Shown here one piece after another: positions 3,000 to 58,793 of a stretch of DNA of 58,794 nt (positions are counted from its first letter, which is position 1; each line of letters begins with the position of its first letter). The notes under the pieces were generated by a model. It had not been told where the DNA came from. It did no database searches and saw only the letters and a program-made list of their open reading frames with translations. Where the stretch lies: positions 1 to 58,794 of the forward strand of contig JAFXAC010000053.1 of assembly GCA_017522125.1 (NCBI GenBank), written 5' to 3'. Position numbers and translations under genes: made by a program. The DNA is from Clostridia bacterium. GTDB taxonomy: Bacteria; Bacillota; Clostridia; Oscillospirales; CAG-272.

Positions 3000-3095
3000 T
3001 TTTGAAAAGCTTCCTTTCTGTTTAACGTTTTTTATCAAGGATTGCACAGCAGGGTGTCGCAATAAAAACTGCGACACCCTACCATATTACAAAGT

Positions 3096-3503
3096 TCAGA
3101 TGAATTTGTTGAGCGACTCGGGGAGCTTTTCAACAGGGAGAGATGCGGTAACGACAATGTTTATCTTGTGGCTATCGGAAAGCTCGTCAACGTCGTGCAT
3201 AAAGCGCTCGAAGGCGTCGAGGTCCTCATTGCAAATGCGAAGCGCAGAGTCAATGAAAACGTCGGAAACGTCATGATTGCTTGCGAGAATGCCCGAAATG
3301 AAGCCGTAAAGAGCGCGCGCGTCGAATACGAAGTACTCGTCAACGTTGATAAGTCTGCAACGGGACGTGATATCGTAGCGGAGCTTGATGCCCTTCTCTA
3401 CGCAAACAACACAGCCCTTGGATTCGGAAACGGCGTCGTTTACAAGGTTGATAAGAGTCTTGGTCTTTCCGGAGCCCTTAGCTCCAACGATGAGTTTAAT
3501 CAT
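3096..3503 (-). CDS. Small P-loop NTPase, function unknown
   Basis: Walker A GAKGSGKT at residues 7-14 and a hydrophobic strand plus D (VFIDS) as candidate Walker B. RBS AGGAGG upstream. Confidence 0.6.
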   Translation of the reverse strand: MIKLIVGAKGSGKTKTLINLVNDAVSESKGCVVCVEKGIKLRYDITSRCRLINVDEYFVFDARALYGFISGILASNHDVSDVFIDSALRICNEDLDAFERFMHDVDELSDSHKINIVVTASLPVEKLPESLNKFI

Positions 3504-3581
3504 TTTATACCTCCTGGTTTTAGGGGATTACAATATTATTATACAGTATTTATTTGATAAAATCAAGTGGTTTATTTGATT

Positions 3582-4916
3582 TTACAGTCTTGCGCGGAGC
3601 TGTTCGGTCATTTCCTCGTAGCCGGGCTTGCCGAGGAGAGCGAACATATTCTTCTTGTACGCCTCAACGCCGGGCTGGTCGAAGGGATTAACGCCGAGCA
3701 TATATCCCGAAACGCCGCAAGCAAGCTCGAAGAAGTAGATCATATAGCCAAGGGAGCGTGCGCTGCGGTCCTTAAGGCGAAGAACGATGTTGGGAACACC
3801 GCCGTCAACGTGTGCAAGGAGCGTGCCGTTCATTGCCATGCGGTTGACCTCGCTCATCTTCATATCAGCAAGGAAGTTAAGTCCGTCGATATTTGCGGGA
3901 TCGTAGGGTACTGCGGCGTTGCTGTCGGGAGTTTCAACGTCGAGAACGGTCTCGAACATTGTGCGCATACCCGACTGAACGTACTGTCCGAGGGAGTGCA
4001 GATCCGTGGAGAAGATAACGGATGAGGGATAGAGTCCCTTGCCGTCCTTGCCCTCACTCTCGCCGTAGAGCTGCTTCCACCACTCGCAGAACATCTGCTC
4101 ATAGGGCTCGTAGCCTACGAATATCTCAACTGCCTTACCCTTGCGGTAAAGGATATTACGGATAGCGGCATACTTGTATGCATCGTTCTTCATAACGTCG
4201 GGCTCGGAGAGTGCCTTGCGTGCGTCTGCCGCGCCACCCATAAGCTCGTCAAGCTCGATGCCTGCAACTGCGATGGGGAGAAGTCCAACTGCGGTAAGTA
4301 CAGAGAAGCGTCCGCCGACGTCGTCGGGAACTACGAAGGTCTCAAAGCCTGCCTCGTCAGCAAACTTCTTAAGCGTTCCGCGTGCCTTATCGGTGGTAAC
4401 GAAGATACGCTCGCGAGCGCCGTCAACACCGTATTTCTTTTCAAGCATAGCTCTGAAATAGCGGAATGCTACTGCGGGCTCGGTAGTCGTGCCCGACTTT
4501 GAGATAACGTTTATGCAAACGTCCCTGCCCTCGCAAAGAGCGAGTATCTCGTCAAGGTCGCCGCCGCTGATATTACAGCCCGAGAAATAAATATCGGGAG
4601 TGTCCTTTTTCATAAGATTGTAGCGAGGGGACTTGAGGAATTCAACTACCGCGCGAGCTCCGAGATAAGAGCCGCCGATACCGATAACGATGAAGAGGTC
4701 GCAAGAAGACTGGATCTTCTTTGCAGCCGCCTTGATGCGTGCATATTCTTCCTTATCATAATTTACGGGAAGATCCATCCAGCCGAGCATTTCGCTGCCT
4801 GCGCCCGTGCGGTTGCGGAGCGTTGCTACTGCGGCGTTAACGTCGGGAGTGATAGCCTTTATTTCGTCGTCGGAAACAAAGGATTTGATGAATTTGTCAG
4901 AAAGTTTGAGTGCCAT
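3582..4916 (-). CDS. pgi: Glucose-6-phosphate isomerase
   Basis: SIS-domain motifs ([21 protein letters not shown]) and length typical of Firmicutes Pgi. Start taken at MALKL (4916). An alternative ATG at 4928 lacks RBS spacing. Confidence 0.9.
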
Positions 4917-5011
4917 ATATTTTCCCATCCTTAAAGAAATATATTATTTTATCTATTTTACCACTTTTTTGCTTTAATTTCAACACATTTTTAAGAGAAA
5001 TATTCTTTTTT

Positions 5012-6169
5012 TCATAATTTTTTTGAGCAACCGAAGAATCCCGATAGCATTCTGAGAAAAAGCGAGACAAATGAGATGCGCTCTACGCTCTCCGTGGCGC
5101 TGATATCCACCCTCGCAAGCTCATTGCCGTCAAGTGTAAATACTACGTCGCCCACCTTGTCGCCGTGCTTTATCGGTGCGGGGACGCTTTCGGGAAGCTC
5201 GACGCGTACCTCGACCGCCTTATCCTTCCCCTTCGCAACGATGGTGGAAAAATCGCCGTGCGCCACAGCGCAAGCGTCCGACTCGCCGCCCGTGACCGTA
5301 AGCGGCGCAAGAGTTGCGCCGCGATATCTGTAAAGCGAGAAATTGGCAAAGCCCCAATCGAGCAGAGCCGCCGCCGCGGCGTTACGCGCATCGCGCGTGG
5401 GAGATGCCATAATTACGGCGATGAGATGCATTCCGTCGCGCTCGGCAGTCGCGCTGATGCAGAATTTCGCCTTTGCCGTAGAGCCCGTTTTAAGCCCCGT
5501 TGCGCCCGCGTAAAATCTGACAAGGCGATTGGTGTTGGAAAGTCCAAACGCGCCGTCACGCACGGTATCCATCCACGTGGAGCTGTATTTCAGTATTCTT
5601 TCGTGCTTTATCAGCTCGCGCGACATAATGGCGATATCCCGCGCCGACAAAACGTGGTTGCTTACAGTATCGTCAAGTCCGTTCGTGTTTTCAAAATGCG
5701 CCGACTTCATTCCAAGCTCGGCGGCGCGCTTGTTCATAAGCTCCACGAATGCGCCCTCACTTCCCGACACCGCCTCGGCAAGCACGACGGCGGCATCGTT
5801 GGCGGATGCGATAACGACGGATTTCAATAGGTCGTCGACGCTCATCCTCTCCCCTTCCTTGAGGAATATCTGCGAGCCGCCCATAGACGCGGCGTGCGCC
5901 GACGCGGTAAGCACCGTGTCGTATGTAAAAACGCCCCTCTCTATCGCTTCCATTACGAGAAGCAAGGTCATAACCTTTGTGACCGAGGCGGGCGGTAGCG
6001 CCTCGTCGGCGTTCTTTTCGTAAAGCACGCGCCCCGTTTCGGCTTCAACAAGTATCGCGCTGACGCAATCAAGCCCAAGGTCGGGATATTCGGCGGCTGA
6101 GCCCGTGGGAACGAGCGACCAAAAAACCATAATTCCGCAAAGTATAACGGATAAAAATCTTCTTTTCAT
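5012..6169 (-). CDS. dacB: D-alanyl-D-alanine carboxypeptidase (serine-type, PBP5 family)
   Basis: Signal peptide, SxxK (SVTKVM), SxN (SANDAA) and KTG (LKTGST) motifs. Start at MKRRFL, preceded by GAGGTG. Confidence 0.85.
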   Translation of the reverse strand: MKRRFLSVILCGIMVFWSLVPTGSAAEYPDLGLDCVSAILVEAETGRVLYEKNADEALPPASVTKVMTLLLVMEAIERGVFTYDTVLTASAHAASMGGSQIFLKEGERMSVDDLLKSVVIASANDAAVVLAEAVSGSEGAFVELMNKRAAELGMKSAHFENTNGLDDTVSNHVLSARDIAIMSRELIKHERILKYSSTWMDTVRDGAFGLSNTNRLVRFYAGATGLKTGSTAKAKFCISATAERDGMHLIAVIMASPTRDARNAAAAALLDWGFANFSLYRYRGATLAPLTVTGGESDACAVAHGDFSTIVAKGKDKAVEVRVELPESVPAPIKHGDKVGDVVFTLDGNELARVDISATESVERISFVSLFLRMLSGFFGCSKKL

Positions 6170-8868: not shown

Positions 8869-9954
8869 TTATAAATATTTTTTAACCGTAGCAAGCATTT
8901 GCGGCATCTTTTGCTCCATATCCAAAACCAGCTTGAACTGATTGCGTGCGCGATCAAGGTTCTGCGTGGGATAGTGGATGCGGAAATAGGTGTCGCCGTT
9001 TAGATAGTCGGTAAGGAAGCGGATGCCCGTTTCCAGCGTGATTATCATCGCTCCCATAGGAAGCGCAAGTATCTCCATATCGGTAAGCGAGCCGTCGAGC
9101 CCTCCGATAAAGCCTCGCGCGAAGGCGTTGAACATATCCTCGCGCATATAGACAAGGTCAAGGTCGGTTTCGTCCTCGGCGGCACTTGACGCGCCAAAGC
9201 GGATAGCGTCACCGAAATCGAAAAGCACAGAGCCGGGCATTACCGTATCAAGGTCGATAACGCAAACGGGCTTACCCGTTACCTTGTCAAGCAGGATATT
9301 GTTTAGCTTCGTATCGTTATGCGTAACGCGGCGCGGGATCACTCCCGCCTCCATTCTGTCCATGATGTACGAGCAGATAACACGATGCTCCTTAACGAAG
9401 GCTATCTCGTCGGGAACGGACTCTGCCCTGCCCGCCGCATTCGCGCAAAGCGCCTCCTCAAAGGCACGGTAGCGTGCGGGGGTGTTGTGAAAATCGGGGA
9501 TAGTTTCGACGAGCCTTGTTACGTCGTAGTCGGCAAGCTGCATCTGAAACTTACCAAACGCACGTCCAACGCTCTCAAAGACCTTCGGTGACTCGGCGGA
9601 TTGATATCCTACGACGTTTCTTACGTATTCGTAGGCACGCCAGCAACCGCCGTTTTCGTCGCGGTAGTATACGCTTCCGTCCTTGGTGGAAATGAAATGG
9701 AGCGTTCCGCGCTTTACGTCGCCGCCTGCGGCTTCTATCTTTTTACTGATATGCTCGGTAACTCCGATTATATTCTTCATAAGCCCGTCGGGGTCCTTGA
9801 ACACCGAAGTATTTATGCGCTGGAGAACGTAACGCTCGCCCTTTTCGCAATAAATAAAATATGTACCGTTTATATGCCCCTCGGAGCATTCTCGGTAAGA
9901 CGAGGGGGCGGAGCGCAGATCAAACTGCGCGGCGATATTAAGAACGTCCGTCAT
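8869..9954 (-). CDS. N-acetylhexosamine 1-kinase-like (APH-fold sugar anomeric kinase, NahK/LnpB-like)
   Basis: APH-fold catalytic loop VTHNDTKLNNILLD and IDLDT metal site. Start taken at MTDVLN (9954), an ATGA overlap with the upstream stop. The longer ORF to 10116 would overlap the upstream gene by 160 nt. Confidence 0.6.
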   Translation of the reverse strand: MTDVLNIAAQFDLRSAPSSYRECSEGHINGTYFIYCEKGERYVLQRINTSVFKDPDGLMKNIIGVTEHISKKIEAAGGDVKRGTLHFISTKDGSVYYRDENGGCWRAYEYVRNVVGYQSAESPKVFESVGRAFGKFQMQLADYDVTRLVETIPDFHNTPARYRAFEEALCANAAGRAESVPDEIAFVKEHRVICSYIMDRMEAGVIPRRVTHNDTKLNNILLDKVTGKPVCVIDLDTVMPGSVLFDFGDAIRFGASSAAEDETDLDLVYMREDMFNAFARGFIGGLDGSLTDMEILALPMGAMIITLETGIRFLTDYLNGDTYFRIHYPTQNLDRARNQFKLVLDMEQKMPQMLATVKKYL

Positions 9955-41551: not shown

Positions 41552-42337
41552 TTAACCGAACACCTCGGCGGCGGCAACGGTTTTTAATATATCAAGGTCT
41601 ATCTTATCCCGACCGTATGCATCAAAAAATCTGTCGCGGTATTTATCGGTCTTTAAATTGAACTCAAGCGTCCACGCGCCCCAGAAAAGATCAACGTGTC
41701 TGTCTCCAATGCCGCCGTTACCAACGTCGATAAAGCCCGCAAGCCGCCAATTATCAAGCATTATGTTCGGCAGGCAATAATCGCCGTGAAGGAGAGTGTC
41801 GCACCCAAGCGCCCCCTTTCCCGCTTGCAAAGCGGCATACGCCTCATCTGCCGAGCGGTAACCAAAGCTGTCGGGAAAATGCGAGGAATCATAATTTCCG
41901 CTGCGGTAATTATCCTCGGCGAGAGCTATGTACTCGGCTGTTCTGTTGCGCACAGGGCAATCGGAAGCATCGATCGAATGCAAAAGGCGCAAAGCCTCGG
42001 CCATCGTATCGCAAAGGCGCAAAGGCTCGGCAAGGTATGCTCCATACGTGCAGTCTTCGCCCGCGACGCGCTCGGTGAGCAGCCAATCCGCCGCTTCCGT
42101 CGCATAATAAAGCACGCGCGCGCCAAGCCCCTTTGATTCGAAATACTCGCTCATTTGCGCCTCGCGCGCAAGAGAGGCGGCGCGGCTCGTTTTAAGATAA
42201 TAGCCGCCGTCTTTATCGATAAAGTACACGCGCGCCTCGGGCGAGCAGGAGCTGTCGTAGACCGCGCCGCCCTCTATTATTTTGCGTATCGCGGCGGGAA
42301 CACCGTGCGGTACGCCGTTCAAAAGCACTCTTTTCAT
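41552..42337 (-). CDS. Aminoglycoside 3'-phosphotransferase (APH(3')) family kinase
   Basis: Catalytic loop LLHGDYCLPNIML and FIDVGNGGIGDRHVDL. Confidence 0.75.
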   Translation of the reverse strand: MKRVLLNGVPHGVPAAIRKIIEGGAVYDSSCSPEARVYFIDKDGGYYLKTSRAASLAREAQMSEYFESKGLGARVLYYATEAADWLLTERVAGEDCTYGAYLAEPLRLCDTMAEALRLLHSIDASDCPVRNRTAEYIALAEDNYRSGNYDSSHFPDSFGYRSADEAYAALQAGKGALGCDTLLHGDYCLPNIMLDNWRLAGFIDVGNGGIGDRHVDLFWGAWTLEFNLKTDKYRDRFFDAYGRDKIDLDILKTVAAAEVFG

Positions 42338-42348
42338 AAATTCACCGT

Positions 42349-43014
42349 TTACCAAATGAATGGCAGTAGTCTGTATTTTACCTTTTTCGTGTATTCCGCA
42401 TAGCCCTCAAGTCCTTCCGAAAGCACCTTTTCCTCGTTAAGTATGCGAATAACGGTTGCGGGAACGTAAAGCGAAAACGGGATAAGTCCCCAAAGCGAGC
42501 CGAGTATCAGAGGAAGCGGCAAAAACATAAAAAGCGTTGCAAGATACATCGGGTGGCGCACAATGCCGTAAAGTCCCGTGCTTACGACCTTTTGTCCCTC
42601 TTGCACCTCGACGGTGCGCGAGAGGTAGGCGTTTTCGCGCATTACCTCGGCATACGCCGCGTATCCGATCAGAAACAGCACGGACGCGGTAACGGTAAGC
42701 CACACGGGCACGCGCGACCACGAAAAGCGAAAATCAAGCGCGGAAAGGATAAAGCCCACGGGGAATATCAAGCCCGACAGCGCGATAACGCCGCGCTGTG
42801 CCTTTTCTTTTTCCTTGTTGTTAAGTCTTTTTTTCAAAAGCTCGGGCGCTTTGATGAAAAGCACTATCCCCATAACGCACATCGGGATAAACAAAAGCGC
42901 AAGAAAGAGCCACGCGCCGCCGTAAAGGAGCGTTCCCGCGGGCAAGAACAAAAGCACGCCCACAAGGATGAGACCGAGAATAAATTTCACAAGTGCGTCA
43001 AATAACAGCTTCAT
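42349..43014 (-). CDS. ICMT/phospholipid methyltransferase family membrane protein
   Basis: GLYGIVRHPMYL motif and a polytopic N-terminus. Confidence 0.65.
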   Translation of the reverse strand: MKLLFDALVKFILGLILVGVLLFLPAGTLLYGGAWLFLALLFIPMCVMGIVLFIKAPELLKKRLNNKEKEKAQRGVIALSGLIFPVGFILSALDFRFSWSRVPVWLTVTASVLFLIGYAAYAEVMRENAYLSRTVEVQEGQKVVSTGLYGIVRHPMYLATLFMFLPLPLILGSLWGLIPFSLYVPATVIRILNEEKVLSEGLEGYAEYTKKVKYRLLPFIW

Positions 43015-43102
43015 CGAGCGCTCCTTTCGAGTTTTATATACATATTATAATAGTTGCGTGCGGTTTTTTCAATAGGCTACGGCGAAATGTTGTCAAAAAA
43101 TT

Positions 43103-43129
43103 AAAAAGCAGGGGTTTCCCTGCTTTTTA
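43103..43129. terminator. Bidirectional terminator at the left border of the AT-rich island
   Basis: AGCAGGG-gttt-CCCTGCT (43107-43124) flanked by A5 and T5. Confidence 0.7.
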
Positions 43130-43160
43130 TATAGCGTAACAAATCGAAAAATCGAACTAT

Positions 43161-44486
43161 TCAATTCCCATTTGCTTCCCACAAGTTTTTCTGCACCCAG
43201 CAGACGTTGCATTTATTTCGCGGGCAGGTACAGCACTGCCATATCTCCGATTTGCCGCCAAGCGTGGCAAGCGGAGTTTTTATGATCGGCGCAAGTATGC
43301 CGAGGGCGGCTTCGTCCAATAAAGCATTCAACTCGCCCTCTGTCATCAGCTGCCAATCGTAAACGTCCTTTTGGTTGGTATTAAGGCGTGTGTAGTAGCA
43401 GCAAGGAAATTGACCGTCCTTGTGATAGACGCGAACGTTAAAATAATATTCGTCCGAGTACTGAGATTTTTGCGCCTCGAACTCCAAGCAAAAATCCCCC
43501 TCCAGACCCATCGTCCATTTAGCTCCCTTTTTCTTAAATCCAAGCTGCTTTAGCCTTTCGGCGATCTTTTGCAAAAACTGCTTTTGCCTCTCTTTTTTTA
43601 AAGCCAAGATATCGTCCCTTGATTTATATAAATACGTATCATACACGTTTTTTATTTGATCGGCAACGGCGTTTTTGTCCGATTCATTTTTTATAACGGA
43701 GTAAAACCGCAATTTTATATTGAAATCGTCCTCGCCGTAGAGTCTAAAATGCTCTCCTTCCGCGACAGTTGTAAAGCCATACGTTACGCCAATATGCTCA
43801 CCGTAGTCCTTCAAATTCACCGCAAAGGCAACCTTGTCAAGCGTAAAGCGGTAAAAGCTGAACTGCCTAAAGCTCCACTCGGCTTCTTTGAAATTTGATT
43901 TAAGGAGCTCCTCTCTCAAAGAAAGCATCGTATCCGTATAACGCAAAAATTCTGCTTCTTTGTCGGTGAAGTCCTTGAAAAATTGCTCGATTCTTAAAAG
44001 CTCCCCTTCTTCAAGAAGCTGATAGGTCATAAGGTCTGTCAGCTCGATAGCAAAGCCGTCGACTTTTTCGGACTCTCTCGCAAAAGCGAGCTTATTATCA
44101 AAGGCTCTTTTGATAACGGCACACTCGGGAGTCCGATCGATTACTTTATAGTATCCACTGCCACTACGCTTTACCCAATCGCCAGCCTTTACCGTTGCCA
44201 TTTCCTTTTCATTCCGACACAGTGCCATCAGCCTGTCAAAAACTCGTCTGTCGGCATCCGTCAAGCAAGCGGGCTCAAGATGGAGCATTGCGTGATAGGC
44301 ATCGTGCAATCTATCGTTAAATAAATATTCAAGCCCCTCGGATAAGCGGAGCTTTTTATCGTAATCATTGCCGAAAATCGTGTCTATATCTTCGCCAAAA
44401 GCATTTTTATAATTCTTCCACCTTGCCTGAAATTCGTCGCTAAAGAACCATCTCTCTTTTTGTGAGCTTGTCTGTGTCTTATCCAT
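43161..44486 (-). CDS. Hypothetical 441-aa protein (C-terminal part DUF4304-like)
   Basis: Long clean ORF in AT-rich DNA. C-terminal KKKGAKW...F.LEF...Q pattern and a terminal Cys cluster. The family call is tentative. Confidence 0.4.
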   Translation of the reverse strand: MDKTQTSSQKERWFFSDEFQARWKNYKNAFGEDIDTIFGNDYDKKLRLSEGLEYLFNDRLHDAYHAMLHLEPACLTDADRRVFDRLMALCRNEKEMATVKAGDWVKRSGSGYYKVIDRTPECAVIKRAFDNKLAFARESEKVDGFAIELTDLMTYQLLEEGELLRIEQFFKDFTDKEAEFLRYTDTMLSLREELLKSNFKEAEWSFRQFSFYRFTLDKVAFAVNLKDYGEHIGVTYGFTTVAEGEHFRLYGEDDFNIKLRFYSVIKNESDKNAVADQIKNVYDTYLYKSRDDILALKKERQKQFLQKIAERLKQLGFKKKGAKWTMGLEGDFCLEFEAQKSQYSDEYYFNVRVYHKDGQFPCCYYTRLNTNQKDVYDWQLMTEGELNALLDEAALGILAPIIKTPLATLGGKSEIWQCCTCPRNKCNVCWVQKNLWEANGN

Positions 44487-44540
44487 AAATCATGTGCCTT
44501 TCTTCTGTTGCAAAGCAAGCGTTTGTGTTGAAAGTGCTGC

Positions 44541-45221
44541 TCAAACGTAAATGATGACTTTATTTGTTTTTTTCTTGTGCAGATACAATTTTAGCGGCAA
44601 GCCCGATCTTGCGCTTAATGCCTTTTTCGGACACGCTTCAACGCACCTAAGACACCTTATGCACCTGCCGTTTGTTTTACCCGATTTTATCGCCCCCAAG
44701 GGACAGATCTCCGAGCAAAGCCCACAGGCGATGCATTTTTCGCTTTTCCGTATTTTAAGCCCCAGCCGCCCTCTCAGCCTCGGAAGGATATCAGCCAAGG
44801 GATTTTTATATAGCTTGGGAAGGCTTACGGGAGAAGGGCTTTGTATCTTCTCAACGAGGGGCTTCAATTTATCGAAATCGCAAAAAGCCCCGTCGTTATC
44901 TATATAGGCGTGCTTCGTGGGGATATACGCGCCCGCAACAACGTTTTTTTGATAGCCTTTTTGTATCTCATACAGCACGTTCCCACAGCACATTTTTCCG
45001 TAGGTGGCAACGACCGTCAGATTGTCAACGGATACGCTCTTCAAAAAATCCTTTACGGCATCGGGAATATTTTGGCAGTGGACGGGAAACACGAGAACGA
45101 GATTTTGATAATCCGTATGTGCCGCCTCAATGCTTAAAAGAGGATAGTCCAAGCACTCGGCAAGGTACGCCGCGACCGCCCTGCTCTGCCCCGTATTTGA
45201 ATAAAAAACGGTTGCGTTCAT
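44541..45221 (-). CDS. EFR1-type flavodoxin-like plus 2x[4Fe-4S] ferredoxin
   Basis: N-terminal flavodoxin-like FYSNTGQSR. C-terminal CIACGLCSEICP and CIRCLRCVEACP. ATGA overlap with the upstream PP-loop gene. Confidence 0.65.
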   Translation of the reverse strand: MNATVFYSNTGQSRAVAAYLAECLDYPLLSIEAAHTDYQNLVLVFPVHCQNIPDAVKDFLKSVSVDNLTVVATYGKMCCGNVLYEIQKGYQKNVVAGAYIPTKHAYIDNDGAFCDFDKLKPLVEKIQSPSPVSLPKLYKNPLADILPRLRGRLGLKIRKSEKCIACGLCSEICPLGAIKSGKTNGRCIRCLRCVEACPKKALSARSGLPLKLYLHKKKTNKVIIYV

Positions 45222-46606
45222 TGTTCCAAGTACTCCCGCATTATCGCGCATTCGGGTATTTCCTCAAGCGAAAAGCCGAGCGAGCTCTTAAGCTCCGATA
45301 GCGCTTCCTCGCGGGAGAGATTGTTACTTCGCCCCGCTATCGCGATCTCAAGTGCGCTGAACGGTATCATCGTGCTTTTCATCTCGTAAAATCTTACGAA
45401 TTGCGAATGCTCCTTGCATTTTTCGATTTTACAGCTCGTATGTAATCCCTTATCGGCTTCCTCGGGGGCAACCCAGCCGCATTCACGAATGATGATATCC
45501 TTTATCTTTCTCCACTCGTAAGCACCGCCGCTTATTTCATCAAAATCGACCTGTACGAACGCGGGAATATTGCCCGTGCGCGAGGACGCGCGTATCGCTC
45601 TTTTTAACGGAGTCAGAATATTGGGGGCTTCTCTTATGGCTTCACAGACGTTTTGCACGAGGGGATTTCTGTATCCCGCTAAATTTTTCAATCTGCTGTC
45701 GCCGTATGCAAGCTGCTTCATCGTGGCGAGGGTGTGGAATTGACCCTTTTTCAGCGGTGGGCGAAGCGTTAGCACCCTGCCGACGTTCAAAAGGAAATTA
45801 AGCACCTTGTTTTGCGCAAACGTATAAGCAAATTTGGGCGCCATGTGATTGAAATACAAGCCGAGCATCTGTGCGGGCTCATTTCCCGCAACGAAATACG
45901 GGACCTTGTTTGCAACAAGCTCCGAGTAAAACAAAACGTACGCGAGGGAAGGACAGGCGCAGGTGTTTCCGTTTAAGGAATAGAGCTTTTTATATATCCT
46001 TTTCAGATCGTCGCTTGAAACTCTGCGGCTGATAAACTCCACCGAATCAAGCGTCGCCTTGGCGTTTTCCACGCTCCTTCTCGCGCAGTCGGACATATAG
46101 GGGATCTCCCAAGTGAGCGCCAGAACGCGGAGCTTTAATTTTTTTGAGAGATAGTACAGTAAATACGTGGAATCCTTGCCGCCCGTGTAAAACACGGCAA
46201 CGTCAAAGCGCGATCTTTTTGACCTTGGGAATGTATTTACTATCGGAACGATGCTTTTCAGCTCTTTCGTCTTGTCCGCGGATTGGCAAATGGGGCATTT
46301 CCCCTCTGCGTCGAACTCTATACCCGGGATCATAAAATCGTTTGCAACGCAGGTCTTGCAAAATCTTGCCTCGTCAAAGCCCTTGGGAATCGCTATTTTA
46401 TCCTCACTTTTAACGATCTGCACGCCTATGAGATTTTTTAGTGCATAGGCTTCCTTCGGCGTCAGCTCGCACGGCAGCCTTTCGACGATCGCTCTTTGCT
46501 TTTTGGTAAGCCGAACGGTATTTTTAAACGTGTCGGGCTGATTTCGCAAGCCGTAATATCTCAAAATACTGCCTTCAAGCCTCCATCTGCTTTGGATATC
46601 GTACAT
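45218..46606 (-). CDS. PP-loop ATP pyrophosphatase, N-acetyl-sugar amidotransferase (WbuX)-like
   Basis: Zn-ribbon CKTC...FDAEGKCPIC followed by PP-loop FYTGGKDST. Confidence 0.55.
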   Translation of the reverse strand: MYDIQSRWRLEGSILRYYGLRNQPDTFKNTVRLTKKQRAIVERLPCELTPKEAYALKNLIGVQIVKSEDKIAIPKGFDEARFCKTCVANDFMIPGIEFDAEGKCPICQSADKTKELKSIVPIVNTFPRSKRSRFDVAVFYTGGKDSTYLLYYLSKKLKLRVLALTWEIPYMSDCARRSVENAKATLDSVEFISRRVSSDDLKRIYKKLYSLNGNTCACPSLAYVLFYSELVANKVPYFVAGNEPAQMLGLYFNHMAPKFAYTFAQNKVLNFLLNVGRVLTLRPPLKKGQFHTLATMKQLAYGDSRLKNLAGYRNPLVQNVCEAIREAPNILTPLKRAIRASSRTGNIPAFVQVDFDEISGGAYEWRKIKDIIIRECGWVAPEEADKGLHTSCKIEKCKEHSQFVRFYEMKSTMIPFSALEIAIAGRSNNLSREEALSELKSSLGFSLEEIPECAIMREYLEQ

Positions 46607-46672
46607 AGCAGTTCCTTTCTTCGACAGTTATACTAAACTGCGTAAAATGGGGTTTCGATTAGTCGAAGGGAT

Positions 46673-46951
46673 CTATTTCCCATTTTTAAAGTATCCTTTA
46701 CCCCCAAACGTATCGTACCACAAGGTGAATATCGCGCCGCAGCTTTTGCATTTGATCCTATACCATAGTCCATCCTGCGGCCACTGCTTTACGGTTTTTT
46801 CGGGAACGTTCCCGCCGACGTATTCATAATTTCCATCGGATAATAAGCGCTTGAGCTTTTGTAAAATATCAAAAAATTCGTCGGTGCTTTTGATATGCCT
46901 TACAGCTTCAAGCTTTTGGCATTCATTGCACAGCCTTTTGAAAAAAATCAC
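46673..46951 (-). CDS. 92-aa hypothetical protein with a CxxC...CxxC zinc-ribbon pattern
   Basis: GTG start preceded by GGAGAA. CNEC and CKSC pairs. Confidence 0.5.
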   Translation of the reverse strand: MIFFKRLCNECQKLEAVRHIKSTDEFFDILQKLKRLLSDGNYEYVGGNVPEKTVKQWPQDGLWYRIKCKSCGAIFTLWYDTFGGKGYFKNGK

Positions 46952-47050
46952 AAGTTTTCTCCTTCAGATATAAATGACGCTCTCCTCTCGGCGCAAGAGC
47001 GTAAAAGGTTTAAAAATCGGTTAAAAACGGGTTGGGAAAGCCAAAAGTCA

Positions 47051-47416
47051 TCAAATACCCAAGAAAAAGAAACCATTATATTCGCGTATTGCTTTTTCGA
47101 GCCACTCAGCAAAAACTTCAAATCCTTTGGGTCTGTCATTAACAATTTGTTCCCTAATTGCTAACGTCTGCTCTTTTGTGTAGTAATTGACGCCGTAAGG
47201 GTCAAGCTCTTGCGTTTCCTTGGAAAGAATCGGATTTCGTAAATAATCGCCGTAATTTTCAAAGAAAGCCTTGCCGTTATCAACGCGAACAAGCAAAGAA
47301 TCCTTTTCCTTGAACGAGTATCCCTTTTTTAATATCTTTTTTATATCCCACTCTTTTTTGCAATACTGAAATTCAAAATATGCACTTCCTTGCTTTTCGG
47401 AACACGGTATAAACAT
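47051..47416 (-). CDS. 121-aa hypothetical protein
   Basis: ATG preceded by AGGAGG. No recognisable motif. Confidence 0.5.
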   Translation of the reverse strand: MFIPCSEKQGSAYFEFQYCKKEWDIKKILKKGYSFKEKDSLLVRVDNGKAFFENYGDYLRNPILSKETQELDPYGVNYYTKEQTLAIREQIVNDRPKGFEVFAEWLEKAIREYNGFFFLGI

Positions 47417-47512
47417 AATTACCTCCTACTGATATAAAAGACGCTCCCCTCTCGGCGCAAGTGCGTAAACGGTGTTTCTTGCACCAAAATAAGCGGCGAA
47501 GTACCAAAGCCC

Positions 47513-48274
47513 TCAATGTGCATCATAAGAGAGATTGCACTCCTTGCAAACATCTCGTTCGTGATCCTCGGAAAAGCTTACTCGCTCCATTATCCTTCCG
47601 CATTTAGGGCAGATATGTATCTGCTGATCGCCCACGTTCTCCGCTTTTATGCTTTTTCCGTAATCACATTCCAAATGGTAGTACACAGGATAGCCAAGCT
47701 TTTTGCTCATATATTCCGCAATTTCGATTTCCTGCTTGTTTAATGCAGAATCAAGCTTTACACGCTGATTTCCCGTATAGCGATCGCAAAGGCAGTTCAT
47801 CCAAAGCATATCCATTGATGAGTAATTCTCTTGCCAATTTTGAACCAAGCAATAATCCTCTTGGCTCTCTGCGGGAAAAGGAAGCTCGTAATACGCAATG
47901 GGCTTTCCGCAATCACAGCAAGTAAATACGCTATCTTGGTCGCGGGAATACGTTTGCATTTCAACTGCGCTTCTCTTTTTGCAACCACAATACTGCCCGC
48001 TTTCAACGTTTTCACCCATGGGGGTAAGGATGCAGTCGTATATTTCCTTAATTCTTTTTCGATCCCGTTTTACGTATACCCCATCATATTTTTCATCAAA
48101 GGAATCGGATTTTGGCAACGTTACGTACATTGCGTAATTCTCGTTTTTCGTTAGCGTATAGCTCTTCAAGATCTGCCCGTTTCGCTCAAGCGAGCAGAGA
48201 AAAGACCAGATCAGGTCTTCTGCGTCCTCTTGTGCTATGCTTTGCTTGGCAAACAACTCTATTTTACAAAACAT
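47513..48274 (-). CDS. 253-aa multi-zinc-ribbon protein (DUF2310-like)
   Basis: CCDCG, CPKCG and CKEC ribbons plus an N-terminal NGQIL segment. The family call is tentative. Confidence 0.45.
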   Translation of the reverse strand: MFCKIELFAKQSIAQEDAEDLIWSFLCSLERNGQILKSYTLTKNENYAMYVTLPKSDSFDEKYDGVYVKRDRKRIKEIYDCILTPMGENVESGQYCGCKKRSAVEMQTYSRDQDSVFTCCDCGKPIAYYELPFPAESQEDYCLVQNWQENYSSMDMLWMNCLCDRYTGNQRVKLDSALNKQEIEIAEYMSKKLGYPVYYHLECDYGKSIKAENVGDQQIHICPKCGRIMERVSFSEDHERDVCKECNLSYDAH

Positions 48275-48329
48275 ACTTCCTTCTCCTTTCGGGGCGTTAT
48301 ACTAAACTGATGTAAAATAAACTTTTTAC

Positions 48330-48680
48330 TTATGCGTTTTCCTTCGCGGTGGTGATGGAGGAGATGAGTCTGCGCCTGATCGAACCGCATTTGTTTTTTA
48401 AATCTTTATAGTTCGATTCGGTTATTTTCCCTTTTCTGAAAATCAGTTCAAGCCAATATTCAGTTTCCGAGCACTCCTTTAAAGAGATTTCAAGCTTATT
48501 TATAAAATCTGCCTTACTCTGTGCATATTTTGCTTCGTGAATATTAGCACCTATAGAGGATGAAGAACGGACAATTTGATTGGCGTAAATGGAGCAACCT
48601 TTGATTTCGTCGCATAGGTCTGATATTTGGATAGCAAATTCTATAGCGTCCTCTCGTAGTTGGTTCTTATTGTCTATCAT
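48330..48680 (-). CDS. Four-helix-bundle protein (23S rRNA intervening-sequence protein/Avd family), copy 1
   Basis: 116 aa with family-typical QIVRSSSSIGANI.EA and E..YWLEL motifs. Confidence 0.85.
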   Translation of the reverse strand: MIDNKNQLREDAIEFAIQISDLCDEIKGCSIYANQIVRSSSSIGANIHEAKYAQSKADFINKLEISLKECSETEYWLELIFRKGKITESNYKDLKNKCGSIRRRLISSITTAKENA

Positions 48681-48702
48681 TTTTTACTAATCCTTTATTC
48701 TG

Positions 48703-49015
48703 TCGATATGTTGCTTCGCAACTCGATATCAATACCTTCGGTATGTCGATATGTTGCTTCGCAACTCGATATGTTTTCGCTACGCTCAAACTCGATATAT
48801 GCTCACTTTGTTCGCATTCGATATGTTGCGCTTTGCGCAACGAGAGGCGCTTTGCGCCTTGGCGCTTTTCCCCAATCTCGTTTTGCCGCAAGGCAAAACA
48901 TATCGAGTCCCCGCAGGGGATATATCGAGCCGCCGCAGGCGGCATATCGACCGACGCGTCAGCGGCGCATATCGACATCGAGTCGTCGTGTCAGCGACAC
49001 GACAGACTCGACGTG
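48703..49015. repeat. Heptamer/hairpin array, copy 1 (6x TCGATAT, centre, 4x ATATCGA)
   Basis: TCGATAT at 48703, 48723, 48746, 48766, 48792 and 48818. ATATCGA at 48900, 48922, 48944 and 48969. Intervening palindromes include GTTGC-ttc-GCAAC and GTTTTGCC-gcaa-GGCAAAAC. Confidence 0.9.
48959..49015 (-). pseudogene. Orphan duplicate of the last 18 codons plus stop of rlmD (HVESVVSLTRRLDVDMRR*)
   Basis: 57/57 nt identical to 50335-50391. No upstream coding continuation: homology stops at 49015/49016. Confidence 0.85.
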
Positions 49016-49080
49016 GGGCAAGAGTACAAAAGGTATATTTTCATGCCAAAAACGGGGGTTGTAAAGCCAAAAGGTATATT

Positions 49081-49746
49081 TTAATTGTACTCTTCTACAT
49101 CACCAAGTAATTTAATAATTCCATTGTCCACAAGTATAGCACCTTTCATAATAGCAGTTGCATATACCGTTTTCTTGCGTTCTTCAAGAACCTTTTGAAT
49201 TGCTGCCTTTTGAGCGTCTTTCCCCTCATAATGCACTTCCAAATAAAAGTCATTCAAATACGGTAATCCCTCATAATATTTGAACTCTGGATAATCATCG
49301 TCGGGGGAAAGATGATATTCAGCAAGTTGAATAACGGCTCCCGCACTATAGCCCATAACAATCCCCTTATGCTTCATCAAAACATCTTTTAGATCAAATT
49401 CCTTGATGCGATCCATCATCCTATCTGGCAAGCCGCCGAGAAAATAGAGGATATCCGCATTTTCAATCTTTTCCTTTGCAGATTCCTTTGTATCCGTAAA
49501 ATAGTTGATAAACGAAACATTCTCCTCGGAGATTCCGTATGCAGTAAACCCACTAACAATACCTTCGTAAAACCTACCATTGCTTTTGCTATATAAGCAA
49601 TTCCAATCCGCAAGAGATTTAGCTTTACTGTCACGAAAAGAGAACGCAATTACCACTACTCTGTGAGTAGGTTGCATATATTTTTTTAATTCATCATAGA
49701 GCCATGGAGCATCTATATCGTAACCCTCAAGTAAAATATTAATCAT
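49081..49746 (-). CDS. Peptidase S51 (dipeptidase E-like, class I glutamine amidotransferase-like) protein
   Basis: ILYFLGG, GYSAGA nucleophile-elbow-like motif and a downstream His. ATGA overlap with four-helix-bundle copy 2. Confidence 0.6.
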   Translation of the reverse strand: MINILLEGYDIDAPWLYDELKKYMQPTHRVVVIAFSFRDSKAKSLADWNCLYSKSNGRFYEGIVSGFTAYGISEENVSFINYFTDTKESAKEKIENADILYFLGGLPDRMMDRIKEFDLKDVLMKHKGIVMGYSAGAVIQLAEYHLSPDDDYPEFKYYEGLPYLNDFYLEVHYEGKDAQKAAIQKVLEERKKTVYATAIMKGAILVDNGIIKLLGDVEEYN

Positions 49747-50099
49747 TGATTTTGATTCTCCTTTGCGGTGGTGATGGAAGCGATAAGTCTGCGCCTAATT
49801 GAGCCGCATTTGTTTCTTAGCTCTTTGTACGTGACCTTGCTCATTTTTCCTTTTCTGAAAATCAATTCAAGCCAATATTCAGTTTCCGAGCACTCCTTTA
49901 AAGAGATTTCAAGCTTATTTATAAAATCTGCCTTGCTCTGTGCATATTTTGCTTCGTGAATGTTTGCTCCGATAGATGATGAAGAACGGACAATTTGATT
50001 GTCGTAAACGGAGCAACCTTTGATTTCGTCACATAGGTCTGATATTTGAATTGCAAATTCAATCGCGTCCTCTCGGAGTTGGTTCTTATTGTCTATCAT
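49743..50099 (-). CDS. Four-helix-bundle protein (23S rRNA IVS protein/Avd family), copy 2
   Basis: 118 aa, about 90% identical to copy 1 with many synonymous differences. Confidence 0.85.
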   Translation of the reverse strand: MIDNKNQLREDAIEFAIQISDLCDEIKGCSVYDNQIVRSSSSIGANIHEAKYAQSKADFINKLEISLKECSETEYWLELIFRKGKMSKVTYKELRNKCGSIRRRLIASITTAKENQNQ

Positions 50100-50121
50100 T
50101 TTCTACTAATCCTTTATTTTG

Positions 50122-50391
50122 TCGATATGTTGCTTCGCAACTCGATATGTTTTCGCTGCGCTCAAACTCGATATATGCTCACTTTGTTCGCATTCGATAT
50201 GTTGCGCTTTGCGCAACGAGAGGCGCTTTGCGCCTTGGCGCTTTTCCCAAATCTCGTTTTGCCGCAAGGCAAAACATATCGAGTCCCCGCAGGGGATATA
50301 TCGAGCCGCCGCAGGCGGCATATCGAGCGACGCGTCAGCGGCGCATATCGACATCGAGTCGTCGTGTCAGCGACACGACAGACTCGACGTG
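50122..50391. repeat. Heptamer/hairpin array, copy 2 (4x TCGATAT, centre, 4x ATATCGA), overlapping the rlmD 3' end
   Basis: TCGATAT at 50122, 50142, 50168 and 50194. ATATCGA at 50276, 50298, 50320 and 50345. The rlmD stop TGA (50335-50337) lies in a hairpin loop. Confidence 0.9.
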
Positions 50392-51726
50392 TCCCGTTCT
50401 CGGAAACAGATCAACGGGAAGGACGGTGCCGATGCTCCAGCCGAGTTGGTAAAGGTGAGCAAGATCGCGTGCGAGCGTTGCGGGGTTGCAGGAGATATAC
50501 ACTATCTTCTTTACGCCTGCCCTATCGAGCGTATCAAGCAGCTCGGCGGCACAGCCCTTGCGCGGCGGGTCAAGCACGACCACGTCGGGAAGCTCACCCG
50601 CAACGCCGAGAAGCTCGGACGCGCCAAGCGCCGAGTCGGCGCACAAAAAGCGCGCGTTCTCAATGCCCGCGCGTGCGGCGTTAGCCACGGCGCACTCAAC
50701 CGCCTCGGGCACTATCTCAACGCCCGTAAGCCGTCCTACGCGCCCCGCCATAGAAAGTCCTACGCTTCCGATGCCGCAATAAAGGTCAAGAAGATGCTCG
50801 TCGCCGCGAAGTCCCGCCATATCAGCGGCGGTGCGGCAAAGAAGCTCGGCGGCATCGTGATTTACCTGATAAAACGCCGCGGGCGCGACGTCAAGCTCAA
50901 CGCCGCAAAAAACGTCCCTTATCGACGCCTTACCCGCCACGGTGATATATTCATTGCCAAGTATTACGTTGGAGTTTTTCGTATTTACGTTAAGTACCAC
51001 GCCCACGATGCGCGAAAACGTGCGCATCAGCGCCTCGGCAAGCTCGTCGGCGTGCGGCAAGCTCCTGCCCGCTATGACGATGCAAACGAGTATCTCGCCG
51101 TCCTCGCCCGCGCCCGTGCGCAGATAGAGGTGGCGCAAAAGTCCCTTGCCGCTTTCCTCGTCGTATACGGAAATCCCCTTTTTATATGCGAAATCGCAAA
51201 CGAATTTCGCTATCTTGCCGAATATCTCGGGCTGTAAGGGGCAGGATTCGTCGCCCGTAACGCGATGTGTTCCCGAGGCGTAAAAGCCCGCGCGAATGCC
51301 GCCCTCGTATGCCGCAAAGCGATATTGCGCCTTATTGCGATAGCCCCAGACCTCACCCGTGTGCGCGGTTTCGAGCACCTCAACGTGCGAAAGCCCCGCC
51401 TTATCAAGTTCGGAGCGCACGTTCTGCCGTTTCAGCTCAAGCTCGTGAGAGTATTTTATAAATCTGTACGCACAGCCGCCACAGCTTGCGGGGGCGGTGC
51501 ATCTGTCACTGCTCTCGCGCAACGGCGAGGGGGTGACGACCTTCATAAGCCTTCCGACGAGATAACCCTTGGTTATCTTTATTATCTTCACCTCTGCCCT
51601 CTCGCCGCTGACTGCGCCGTGGGTGAACACGACCTTGCCGTCCTCCGTCCTGCCTACTCCGTAGCCAAGATTGCTGACGGCGGTAACGTCGATTGTAACG
51701 ACGTCGTTTTTCTTTATATCAGACAT
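50335..51726 (-). CDS. rlmD: 23S rRNA (uracil-C5)-methyltransferase, RlmD/RumA family
   Basis: TRAM domain, Fe-S Cys cluster (CTAPASCGGC), SAM fold (DLYCGIG), nucleophile region YISCNP and terminal FPRTGHVE motif. Start taken at MSDIKK (51726). Confidence 0.85.
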   Translation of the reverse strand: MSDIKKNDVVTIDVTAVSNLGYGVGRTEDGKVVFTHGAVSGERAEVKIIKITKGYLVGRLMKVVTPSPLRESSDRCTAPASCGGCAYRFIKYSHELELKRQNVRSELDKAGLSHVEVLETAHTGEVWGYRNKAQYRFAAYEGGIRAGFYASGTHRVTGDESCPLQPEIFGKIAKFVCDFAYKKGISVYDEESGKGLLRHLYLRTGAGEDGEILVCIVIAGRSLPHADELAEALMRTFSRIVGVVLNVNTKNSNVILGNEYITVAGKASIRDVFCGVELDVAPAAFYQVNHDAAELLCRTAADMAGLRGDEHLLDLYCGIGSVGLSMAGRVGRLTGVEIVPEAVECAVANAARAGIENARFLCADSALGASELLGVAGELPDVVVLDPPRKGCAAELLDTLDRAGVKKIVYISCNPATLARDLAHLYQLGWSIGTVLPVDLFPRTGHVESVVSLTRRLDVDMRR

Positions 51727-52399
51727 AGTATTCCTCGCCGTTGTCAAGGCACAGGCAGGCAAGTCTGCCGCCGCGTGCCGCACCGCAGTCAATGGCTATA
51801 AAGCCCTCGCCGCGATATATATCGCCGTTGCACGAAAAATTCTCGGTGGTGGGCGCGTGTCCGACTATCATAGTAGCCTCGCCTACTGCGCACACGTCGG
51901 CACCGTCGGCAGAGAAATCTGCCCAATCGTAATCCTCAAGGTCCTTGTCAGCCTCATAGCCCTTTATTCCCGAATGAACGAGAACGTAGTCCCTGCCGCC
52001 GACGTGCAGAGTTTCGTAGGGTGCCATATCCGCAAGGTAGTCGATAACGCCCTCGCGCATATCCGCGTCAAGCTCGCGGAAGCCGTCAAGCGTGCGCTGT
52101 CCGCCCATTGCTATCCATTTTTGCATTTTTGCGATGAAGTCCGCGTCGGGTGCTTTTCCGTCCTTGAGCATTTCCGAAAAGCCCTCAAGCATCTCGGCGG
52201 CAAGCCTATCGTGCTCGCCCGCGACGGGCCAGACGTTTTCGCGCATACTGAGGTCGCACACAAGCTCAATAGGCTCGTCCCCTATATCAACGATATCGCC
52301 AAGCACGAACATAACGTCGTTCTTGGAAAAATTTATCTGCTCAAGCAGTGCGGTAAAATCGGCGTAGCAGCCGTGAATATTTGATACAACGTAGGTCAT
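51719..52399 (-). CDS. Metallophosphoesterase (PPP-family Ser/Thr phosphatase/ApaH-like)
   Basis: SNIHG, GDIVDIG and VHSG motifs. ATG 52399 preceded by GGAGGAG. Confidence 0.75.
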   Translation of the reverse strand: MTYVVSNIHGCYADFTALLEQINFSKNDVMFVLGDIVDIGDEPIELVCDLSMRENVWPVAGEHDRLAAEMLEGFSEMLKDGKAPDADFIAKMQKWIAMGGQRTLDGFRELDADMREGVIDYLADMAPYETLHVGGRDYVLVHSGIKGYEADKDLEDYDWADFSADGADVCAVGEATMIVGHAPTTENFSCNGDIYRGEGFIAIDCGAARGGRLACLCLDNGEEYYV

Positions 52400-57968: not shown

Positions 57969-58793
57969 TTATATCAGCAAACGCATATTTTCCATCTTTT
58001 TCCTATGCTCTGCTCCGCTTTCGATTATATAGATACGCGTTGTATCTATGCTGCTGTGGCCGAGAATATCAGACAGCCTTGATATATCCTTATCAATGGA
58101 ATAGAACATTTTTGCAAAAAGGTGGCGAAGGTTGTGGGGGAACACCTTTTCAGCACTCACACGTGCCGCCGCGCAAAGAGAGCGCATCTCGCGCCAAATA
58201 TTGCTCCTGTCGAGTGGCTTGCCGCCGCGGGTAATAAATATAGCCCCTGTTGCGATCCCTCTTTTTTTAGCGTAAGCCGCAAGCCTTTTGCGCAGCTCCT
58301 TGACGATCAGCACCCTTCGCAGCTTTCCCTTGCAATTCACGATCGCCTCACCGCGCGCGAGAGATTCGACCGTGATAAACTCAAGCTCGCTGACTCGTAT
58401 ACCCGTAGCGCAAACGGTTTGAAGCAGGAGCGCCAAGCGTTCGTTTTTCCTTCGCTCCGCCTCTCGCACGAGTCGTAAATATTCCTCGCGGCAAAGCTCC
58501 CTTTCCTCTGAGCAATACACCATTCTTTGCACTCTCAACCGCTTTTGGCAAAGCTCTTCCCTGCCGCAAAATTTAAAAAACGAGTTTAGTGACGCTATTG
58601 TGCAGTTTACGCTTTGCGGCGAATATTTTTTTGTCAGCTCGTCCTTGTAGGCTCTGGCTCGCTCTGCGCTTGCCTCACCGTCCCCGATGAAATCAAGAAA
58701 ACGCCCCACGTCGCTCAGATATTTTCTTACGGTTGCCGCGCTTTTTTCAGTTCTGAATAAATAATCTTTGTATTCTTTTATATTTTTCAGCAT
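57969..58793 (-). CDS. Tyrosine site-specific recombinase (XerC/D-like phage-integrase family)
   Basis: N-terminal SAM-like core-binding domain. Catalytic residues in ATGIRVSEL (Arg), HNLRH, LGHSSIDTTRIY (His..Tyr). The ATG lies 1 nt from the window edge, so the RBS cannot be seen. Confidence 0.8.
   Translation of the reverse strand: MLKNIKEYKDYLFRTEKSAATVRKYLSDVGRFLDFIGDGEASAERARAYKDELTKKYSPQSVNCTIASLNSFFKFCGREELCQKRLRVQRMVYCSEERELCREEYLRLVREAERRKNERLALLLQTVCATGIRVSELEFITVESLARGEAIVNCKGKLRRVLIVKELRKRLAAYAKKRGIATGAIFITRGGKPLDRSNIWREMRSLCAAARVSAEKVFPHNLRHLFAKMFYSIDKDISRLSDILGHSSIDTTRIYIIESGAEHRKKMENMRLLI

Follow-up and report, generated by a model that had tools for sequence, protein, structure and literature searches.

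A candidate gene-cassette array accreted at the 3′ end of rlmD in a Clostridia genome

In the genome of a Clostridia bacterium, the six genes of an AT-rich island (positions 43161-48329 of contig JAFXAC010000053.1) follow one another on the minus strand and are joined by short repeated sequences, which raises the question of what these junctions are and how the genes came to stand behind the rRNA methyltransferase gene rlmD (rumA). The window, that is the whole stretch of 58,794 nucleotides that was analysed, is one complete contig of a 1.82-Mb metagenome-assembled genome (MAG; 99 contigs, 51.3% GC, 92% complete). Our preferred answer, which we hold with moderate confidence on the basis of sequence comparison, is that the island represents the rlmD-distal, older part of a row of small cassettes that accreted at the rlmD 3′ end by site-specific recombination, with the recombinase acting in trans.

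The GC content of 43161-48329 is 44.8% compared to 51.3% for the genome, and 500-nt windows inside it range from 38.8 to 49.4%. Relative to all 5-kb windows of the genome (mean GC 0.516, standard deviation 0.031), the island lies 2.2 standard deviations under the mean, in the lowest ~4% of the genome. The initial annotation, made from the sequence of the window alone, was thus right that the composition differs from that of the flanks (51-63% GC), but the drop it gave (35-45% against 55-65%) was exaggerated. The tract below 50% GC spans 42750-50250 and thus includes both modules with four-helix-bundle genes, up to rlmD. Every gene from rlmD (50335-51792) to 42349 lies on the minus strand. As the initial annotation had stated, none of the six island genes has a housekeeping identity according to the list of open reading frames (ORFs), Pfam and NCBIfam, and the latter two databases also confirmed the gene names that had been proposed. 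The EFR1 ferredoxin matches NF038196 with 84 bits (cut-off 75), and the PP-loop protein is WbuX-like with a score below the cut-off. Rfam and tRNA scans over the window were empty.

Conserved ends behind the repeated junctions

Three families of junction repeats, A, B and C, had been described in the island. Family A is a 51-nt sequence found with 88% identity at 46959-47009 and 47423-47473 and nowhere else in the genome (blastn-short, E 4e-9). As a pair, the Family B copies share only a 14-nt exact core, which is marginal genome-wide (E 0.13), and the two Family C copies are no more similar to each other than expected by chance (80% over 25 nt, with 11 nt matching exactly).

In relatives of the genus, a junction starts directly after the stop codon of a gene and has two parts. 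The first is a right end (RE), which spans ~75 nt and reads AATATACCTTTTGGCTTTACAACCCCCGTTTTT...AAATATACCTTTTG.A.TCTTGACC. The other part, which we call the core (CACGTCGAGAGTGTCGTTTGTCTGA), repeats the final codons of rlmD (H-V-E-...-stop). Primary sequence is conserved across the junction, and the last 25 nt of the RE are at least 90% invariant. A further conserved element, the leader (LE), is ~85 nt long and ends in the ribosome-binding site (RBS) of the cargo gene (GGGACAAATGTGAGTTTTGAGCAAAACTCGAAACTTCAATTTACAGCAGTTTAGTATAACATATCGAAAGGAG). It holds a small hairpin with some compensatory changes and is often located just after a gene of the PF05635 four-helix-bundle family (IVP). Between core and leader, many cassettes contain 60-100 nt of A-tracts (GAAAATGAGCCAAAATCGGCTTAAAATGGGCAAAAT...) phased at ~10 nt spacing (for example at 9640-9720 in locus L015 and from 4800 in L109; loci are numbered L and genomes G), which suggests, from the spacing, intrinsically bent DNA.

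Junction and LE profiles were built solely from other genomes. The junction profile matched the present genome at 49089-48987 (nhmmer, E 2.9e-26), at 47053-46969 (E 6.5e-9) and at the rlmD end, and nowhere else. The match at 47053-46969 covers Family C plus Family A copy 1; its alignment score against the RE consensus is 73, compared to 16.6 ± 3.1 for shuffled sequences. Both copies of Family C sit at equal positions of the RE profile. The LE profile matched at 48331-48279 (E 1.9e-6) and 46658-46611 (E 1.7e-4), with no other matches, and these are exactly the two places of Family B. Tested alone against the RE consensus, Family A copy 2 gave no significant match, and no independent right end was significant in the sequences that follow the genes for the 92-aa protein, the ferredoxin, DUF4304 and ICMT.

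Judging from these alignments, Families C and A at 47053-46969 are the distal and proximal parts of one degenerate RE together with a decayed rlmD tail, and Family A copy 2 appears as a truncated paralogue of this decayed junction. Family B is part of the conserved leader. The three families are therefore not independent of each other, as had been assumed: C and A form one right end with its rlmD-tail relic, and B is a leader. Family A is a true repeat; the imperfect palindrome upstream of an RBS that had been seen in it is a decayed former rlmD end, and its ...ATCTGA contains the former rlmD stop codon, with the TGA just before the next RBS. Family B was correctly placed at both of its sites, and Family C is real by its profile positions, though not by the pairwise similarity on which it had been proposed.

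We also considered whether the motifs are sigma-70 promoters. This was rejected, since their spacing does not fit and promoter-like sites showed no enrichment inside the array. On the plus strand, a promoter-like match (TCGACA-16-TAAAAT, 10/12) lies antisense over Family B copy 1 at 46621-46648; it is probably fortuitous, as the other copy has no equivalent.

Cassettes with the same ends in other Clostridia

We scanned species-representative genomes with the junction pattern and obtained at least 119 loci, and all per-locus counts given below rest on these listed loci. All of them come from gut or rumen Clostridia MAGs, labelled as Oscillospiraceae, Christensenellaceae, Lachnospiraceae, Acutalibacteraceae or 'Eubacteriales'. 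In metagenomes, 41 true junction copies were found among 46 matches. The junction motifs thus recur, with different cargo between them, in at least 160 loci, which bears out the suggestion that modular cassettes with shared boundaries continue into the modules next to rlmD; recurrence, composition and synteny all agree on this point.

A tblastn search placed rlmD in 67 of the 119 loci, co-oriented with the first junction and 0.35-3.5 kb upstream of it; its protein is only 29-57% identical to that of the window. A profile of the RE alone found 151 right ends, and the rlmD-tail core follows all of them (151/151). The leader has 42 copies in these loci. There were 87 complete cassettes with both boundaries within the locus, 315-3496 nt long with a median near 1 kb. 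Their ORFs lie largely on the rlmD strand (156, against 22 mostly tiny ones on the opposite strand), and grouping the 138 cassette proteins with a length of 80 aa or more gave 80 clusters. By far the commonest cassette gene is the PF05635 gene, present in 34 of the 119 loci. Among the cargo we found HpaII-type and Bpu10I-type restriction enzymes with C5 methylases, NERD, T5orf172, HNH and GIY-YIG proteins, a ResIII/DEAD helicase, VanY, S15 and S51 peptidases, an FAD oxidoreductase and SF0329. Methyltransferases occur as well, and many cargo proteins match no family.

The cassettes are AT-richer than the rlmD gene of their own locus in 53 of 54 loci (GC 0.387 vs 0.521; Wilcoxon p 2e-10). Furthermore, in 35 of 36 comparisons the cassette homologue was closer to the protein of the present genome than the rlmD of the same locus was; for instance, IVP is 87-91% identical where rlmD is 36-48% identical. 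Because the cassette proteins are more similar than rlmD and the cassettes AT-richer, there is strong sequence evidence that cassettes have been exchanged horizontally between families. A phage origin was rejected: the junction had no blastn match in phage and plasmid collections, and two pattern matches in viral contigs are chance matches inside phage structural genes.

Each gene of the island has a homologue in cassette position in other loci. Homologues of the 92-aa protein lie between core and RE in L026, L036 and L121. The 121-aa protein corresponds to a complete cassette in L143 and follows a core in L123, with 71-73% identity, compared to 30-54% for rlmD. The DUF2310 homologue (68% identical) stands directly before an RE in L076, and the DUF4304 homologue (67% identical) has an LE upstream and an RE downstream in L095. 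The pair of PP-loop and ferredoxin genes has a junction on either side in L051; an RE follows the ferredoxin gene in L044, L064, L065, L088 and L092, and a full IVP-LE unit precedes the same PP-loop gene in L048.

Within the genus, the junction was found in five to six species of 38 genomes, always next to rlmD, and the locus is not syntenic, as expected for accessory DNA. In G023, rlmD is followed by one heptamer array, one IVP gene, a terminator, a convergent hydrolase gene and the ICMT gene, and the island is absent. In G019, G020 and G011 the same ends enclose different genes, restriction-modification systems among them, and core-LE-cargo-RE is the repeated order. In G014, the proximal cassettes differ (a 158-aa gene, and IVP with a 351-aa gene), and a lipoprotein gene takes the place of the DUF4304 gene. 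The distal PP-loop/EFR1 pair is shared: window positions 44538-46742 are 98.4% identical to 5705-7910 of L011 from this genome, while the flanking core genes are 94-95% identical. Seen in the sequence comparison, this excess suggests either recent exchange or strong constraint. Entry of new cassettes at the rlmD end predicts shared distal units combined with different proximal units, as is seen in these relatives.

Some loci show further changes at the rlmD end. In L016 of G020 (4901-5254), a restriction-modification cassette is followed by a displaced rlmD tail that codes for a C-terminal extension of ~117 aa (HVETVVLLSNGEV...), which is also present on the intact rlmD of L163; the insertion of the cassette in L016 therefore swapped a long native C-terminus for a short one. 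In addition, L112 (4664-5800) and L082 (5216-6337) carry a second, divergent rlmD-like methyltransferase gene within or after the cassette array.

Anatomy of the array and its flank

The array is anchored by rlmD, with its TRAM and U5 methyltransferase domains, whose homologues lie upstream of the junction in other loci. The core at its 3′ end, from the HVE codons to the stop (50363-50391, junction profile positions 86-114), would be the attachment point; it belongs to the same sequence class as the relic after each cassette and forms the sharp boundary of an internal duplication. All features described below are on the minus strand. Cassette 1 starts with an array of TCGATAT heptamers and mini-hairpins and the four-helix-bundle gene IVP2 (PF05635; 49743-50334), followed by a 221-aa Peptidase_S51-like protein (49081-49746). 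This pairing of IVP with S51 is also found in L113, with an rlmD of only 48% identity. The RE of cassette 1 is intact (49089-49016) and passes into an orphan rlmD 3′ end from 49015 downward, the two together forming the junction at 48987-49089.

Cassette 2 follows this orphan tail and begins with another heptamer array, which matches that of cassette 1 at 98% identity, and with IVP1 (48330-48986; repeats D1/D2). Next come the LE that contains Family B copy 2 (48279-48331), the DUF2310 multi-zinc-ribbon gene (47513-48274) and Family A copy 2 (47423-47473), which we read as a truncated and decayed RE-proximal arm with an rlmD-tail relic. Cassette 3 consists of the gene for the 121-aa orphan (47051-47416) and the full-length but degenerate RE with its tail (46969-47053). 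Further from rlmD, the 92-aa CxxC...CxxC orphan gene (46673-46951) has lost its own RE, and its final codons have merged with a partial LE that holds Family B copy 1 (46611-46658). This leader precedes the two-gene cargo of WbuX-like PP-loop enzyme and EFR1 flavodoxin/ferredoxin (44541-46606) and the gene for the 441-aa DUF4304 protein (43161-44486); neither is followed by an RE, and both ends of the DUF4304 unit are decayed. Junction decay thus rises with distance from rlmD: intact at 49016-49089, degenerate at 47473-47423 and 47053-46969, and lost after the 92-aa, ferredoxin and DUF4304 genes.

An intrinsic terminator (43102-43129; 12-bp stem and T-run) closes the array and is the sole strong minus-strand terminator between rlmD and the ICMT gene. 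Beyond it lie a strong promoter-like site (43072-43044, 11/12 matches) and the gene for an ICMT/PEMT-family membrane methyltransferase (42349-43014), a flank that is conserved in the genus (42349-43072). ICMT/PEMT-like genes stand directly after a cassette junction in L042 and L105, which belong to other families, and their proteins are 73-76% identical although rlmD is only ~52% identical; the methyltransferase may be an old, fixed cassette. Just past the array, a genus-conserved gene (41552-42355) encodes a 267-aa APH(3′)-like phosphotransferase that matches NF033068 with 147 bits, under the 205-bit cut-off, and a match of this kind is no proof of resistance.

From this layout we propose the following model. 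A full cassette would bring along a duplicate of the ~10-19 terminal rlmD codons, which keeps rlmD intact upon insertion, then optionally a heptamer/hairpin array with a PF05635 gene, optionally the leader with its RBS (Family B), one to three cargo genes on the rlmD strand and the RE. The RE would abut the displaced older rlmD tail (Families C and A). Recombination would take place at the HVE codons, so new cassettes would enter beside rlmD and older ones would shift outward and decay. The array would be read through from rlmD and stop at the single terminator. Several aspects are seen in the sequences themselves: the cassettes lack promoters and recombinase genes, their genes are biased to one strand, they have been exchanged horizontally, and every unit restores and displaces the rlmD tail, which is an insertion-type architecture. 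Site-specific recombination at the HVE codons would then depend on an enzyme supplied in trans, the leading candidate being a rumA-specific large serine integrase from integrative and conjugative elements (ICEs), integrative and mobilizable elements (IMEs) or prophages.

Recombinases, alternative explanations and known systems

We searched for recombinases with tblastn, phmmer and hidden Markov models made from the MAG's own ten tyrosine and two serine recombinases, against all ORFs of the 119 genome and 41 metagenome loci. In agreement with the initial annotation, no integrase was found within the island, and the sole PF00589 gene of the window (57969-58793) lies 6 kb upstream of rlmD. Only one of the ~160 loci, L094 (also L162; G054:C17), has a serine recombinase next to a junction. 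The gene of this rumA-type large serine recombinase of 574 aa (oriented 2861-4851) has the 3′ sequence ...DWDNETTVESVICLERICK and passes directly into a core, followed by an 88-aa cargo gene (membrane protein), a standard RE and another core. Because the 3′ end runs into the core, integrases of this type use the same few nucleotides as the cassettes. The family is very large in the gut, with relatives of at least 78% identity numbering in thousands in metagenomes, and its C-termini (...DWDNE(S/T)TVETV(C/V)LLSK) form a rumA-like tail. The case for this integrase as the cassette enzyme is circumstantial.

Several results weigh against a site-specific array served in trans. No tyrosine recombinase was found in cis across the ~160 loci, and the two serine recombinases of the MAG are not of the rumA type (no rumA-like tail; 23-27% identical). 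Other integrases of the L094 family lack an RE or LE in their neighbourhood, so the idea that these integrases always accompany the ends was rejected. Also set aside was the idea that the RE is a pseudogenised integrase C-terminus or stub, which it resembles by eye, since hmmsearch scores for protein-level similarity were not above those of shuffles. Nor does the RE show the dyad symmetry that a crossover site would be expected to have (10/18 matches; 424 of 500 shuffles as good or better). The distal genes of the window lack recognisable ends, and their cassette origin rests on the homologues in other loci. Finally, the rlmD of L219 (1850-10366) comes with arrayed heptamers (4 x GCGATAT followed by 4 x ATATCGC) and, behind them, a tight same-strand gene row, including homologues of the 121-aa and DUF4304 proteins, with no RE or LE between the genes; not all rlmD arrays therefore use these ends. 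The missing helper integrase is weak evidence, because MAGs under-represent mobile elements. Since the present MAG encodes no rumA-type integrase, its array is probably frozen at present.

Could the units be deletion remnants instead, resembling cis-mobilizable elements (CIMEs), of larger ICEs, IMEs or prophages with serine integrases that inserted serially in rumA and lost their backbones? They would then never have been mobile as small cassettes, and RE and LE would be the ends of one common parent element. The rumA hotspot, accretion and CIME formation are documented (PMC4701971, PMC5704250), L094 has an integrase element and a cassette in tandem, and the distal junctions in the present array are decayed. 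We nevertheless consider this origin rather unlikely. The 87 small cassettes set 80 cargo clusters against the same ends, often with an RBS right after the core, and random deletions are unlikely to produce such repeated precise joints. Moreover, no parent with RE, LE and integrase was found in the ~160 loci, plasmids or phages, and the RE is no recognisable integrase-gene stub. An autonomous element with RE and LE was likewise not found among the genome matches listed or in metagenome, viral, plasmid and phage collections.

The ends might also be expression or regulatory sequences (untranslated region, processing, termination) that double as homology anchors, with cargo swapped by transformation or conjugation and RecA at a hotspot of homologous recombination, and with no dedicated recombinase. 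This would agree with the hairpin and terminal RBS of the leader, the lack of a recombinase nearby, the higher identity of the PP-loop/ferredoxin pair relative to its flanks and the existence of arrays without RE or LE. However, the fresh rlmD tail after each of the 151 right ends indicates insertion into the gene end and not allelic replacement, the duplication boundary at the HVE codons is sharp, and hosts with the same ends have rlmD genes too divergent for flank homology, so we regard such swapping as unlikely. That the repeats are chance similarities or assembly artefacts, and the island ordinary strain-specific DNA, is highly improbable. Taken singly, neither Family C nor Family A copy 2 is significant, and the genome is a fragmented MAG, but the independent profiles matched at the predicted places only, with E-values from 3e-26 to 2e-4, and the same architecture is present in more than 100 independent assemblies; recurrence across loci and the profile matches together refute this explanation. 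The accreted cassette array with a recombinase in trans thus remains the reading that we prefer.

The immunity- or defence-type function that had been proposed for the island was not supported. PADLOC gave only two weak, partial matches among the nine proteins of the window, none of them credible, and among 76 cargo clusters essentially only restriction-modification genes (one pair) and one PDC-S57 candidate scored as defence. If the cassettes are mobile, they would provide a widespread and undescribed route for single-gene transfer among families of gut and rumen Clostridia, moving restriction-modification systems, peptidases, redox enzymes and many proteins without known function. The ~25-nt pattern retrieves such arrays, which opens metagenomes to mining for cassette genes and offers a way to look for the recombinase by experiment. 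For annotation, AT-rich and orphan-rich stretches behind rlmD find an explanation, and 'palindromes' and 'promoter-like' repeats in them would be relics of element ends.

We found no description of this cassette family or its ends in the literature, and several known systems share parts of the architecture. Single large serine integrases of ICEs and IMEs are documented to target rumA; attR then lies inside the integrase gene, and both genes exchange their 3′ ends reciprocally (PMC4701971). Tandem accretion and recombinase-less CIMEs (PMC5704250) and rlmD-flanked prophages (PMC12785378) have also been described. Examples of elements with serine integrases that target rumA/rlmD are the streptococcal IME_SpnAP200_rumA and ICE_Spy2096_rumA, C. 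difficile CTn5 and the Erysipelothrix prophage phiEr670. Like these ICEs and IMEs, the cassettes use the same part of the target gene, supply a replacement methyltransferase C-terminus and accrete in tandem: insertion is in the 3′ part of rlmD with exchange of the C-terminus, the boundary lies at the HVE codons, and each unit has its own tail in front of a displaced one. The ICEs and IMEs are 5-60 kb long, with their own integrase and direct repeats of 2-21 bp, whereas the present units measure 0.3-3.5 kb, have no integrase and show a conserved non-coding RE of 75 nt, a leader of 85 nt and co-oriented promoterless rows. With CIMEs and accretion arrays they share att-type repeats of the target gene end, the absence of integration and transfer genes, the tandem position at the 3′ end and, presumably, mobilisation by a helper. 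CIMEs are described as sporadic decay products, in contrast to the large family with standard ends and single-gene cargo found here.

The staphylococcal cassette chromosome (SCC) and pseudo-SCC elements at rlmH (orfX) also arise by serial insertion of repeat-bounded units in the end of an rRNA methyltransferase gene. Some of these units have no recombinase and depend on serine recombinases (Ccr) acting in trans. The present array differs in its target (rlmD and not rlmH), its taxa, its far smaller units and its more uniform orientation and ends, and no ccr-type genes were seen. To our knowledge, integrons are essentially unknown in gut and rumen Clostridia. Unlike integrons, the loci have no IntI or tyrosine recombinase nearby, and their cassettes are anchored at a housekeeping gene, whose 3′ end each of them restores. 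The junctions are conserved in sequence and not as folded imperfect palindromes, without dyad symmetry beyond that of shuffles, so the initial annotation was correct that attC-type sites are absent. With integrons and clusters of attC sites lacking integron-integrases (CALINs), on the other hand, the array shares short, promoterless, co-oriented and diverse cassettes that are AT-richer than their hosts and common to distant hosts, with apparent anchor-proximal entry and older cassettes at the distal side. A tentative and less probable extension of our model is that the rlmD end is a reserved site and constitutes a second, independently evolved capture platform of the integron type in gut and rumen Clostridia. 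A dedicated recombinase in trans, which need not be a known rumA serine integrase, would there insert and excise cassettes of standard build (rlmD tail, leader, cargo, 75-nt right end) and allow their exchange between families, with the four-helix-bundle protein and the heptamer array as accessories.

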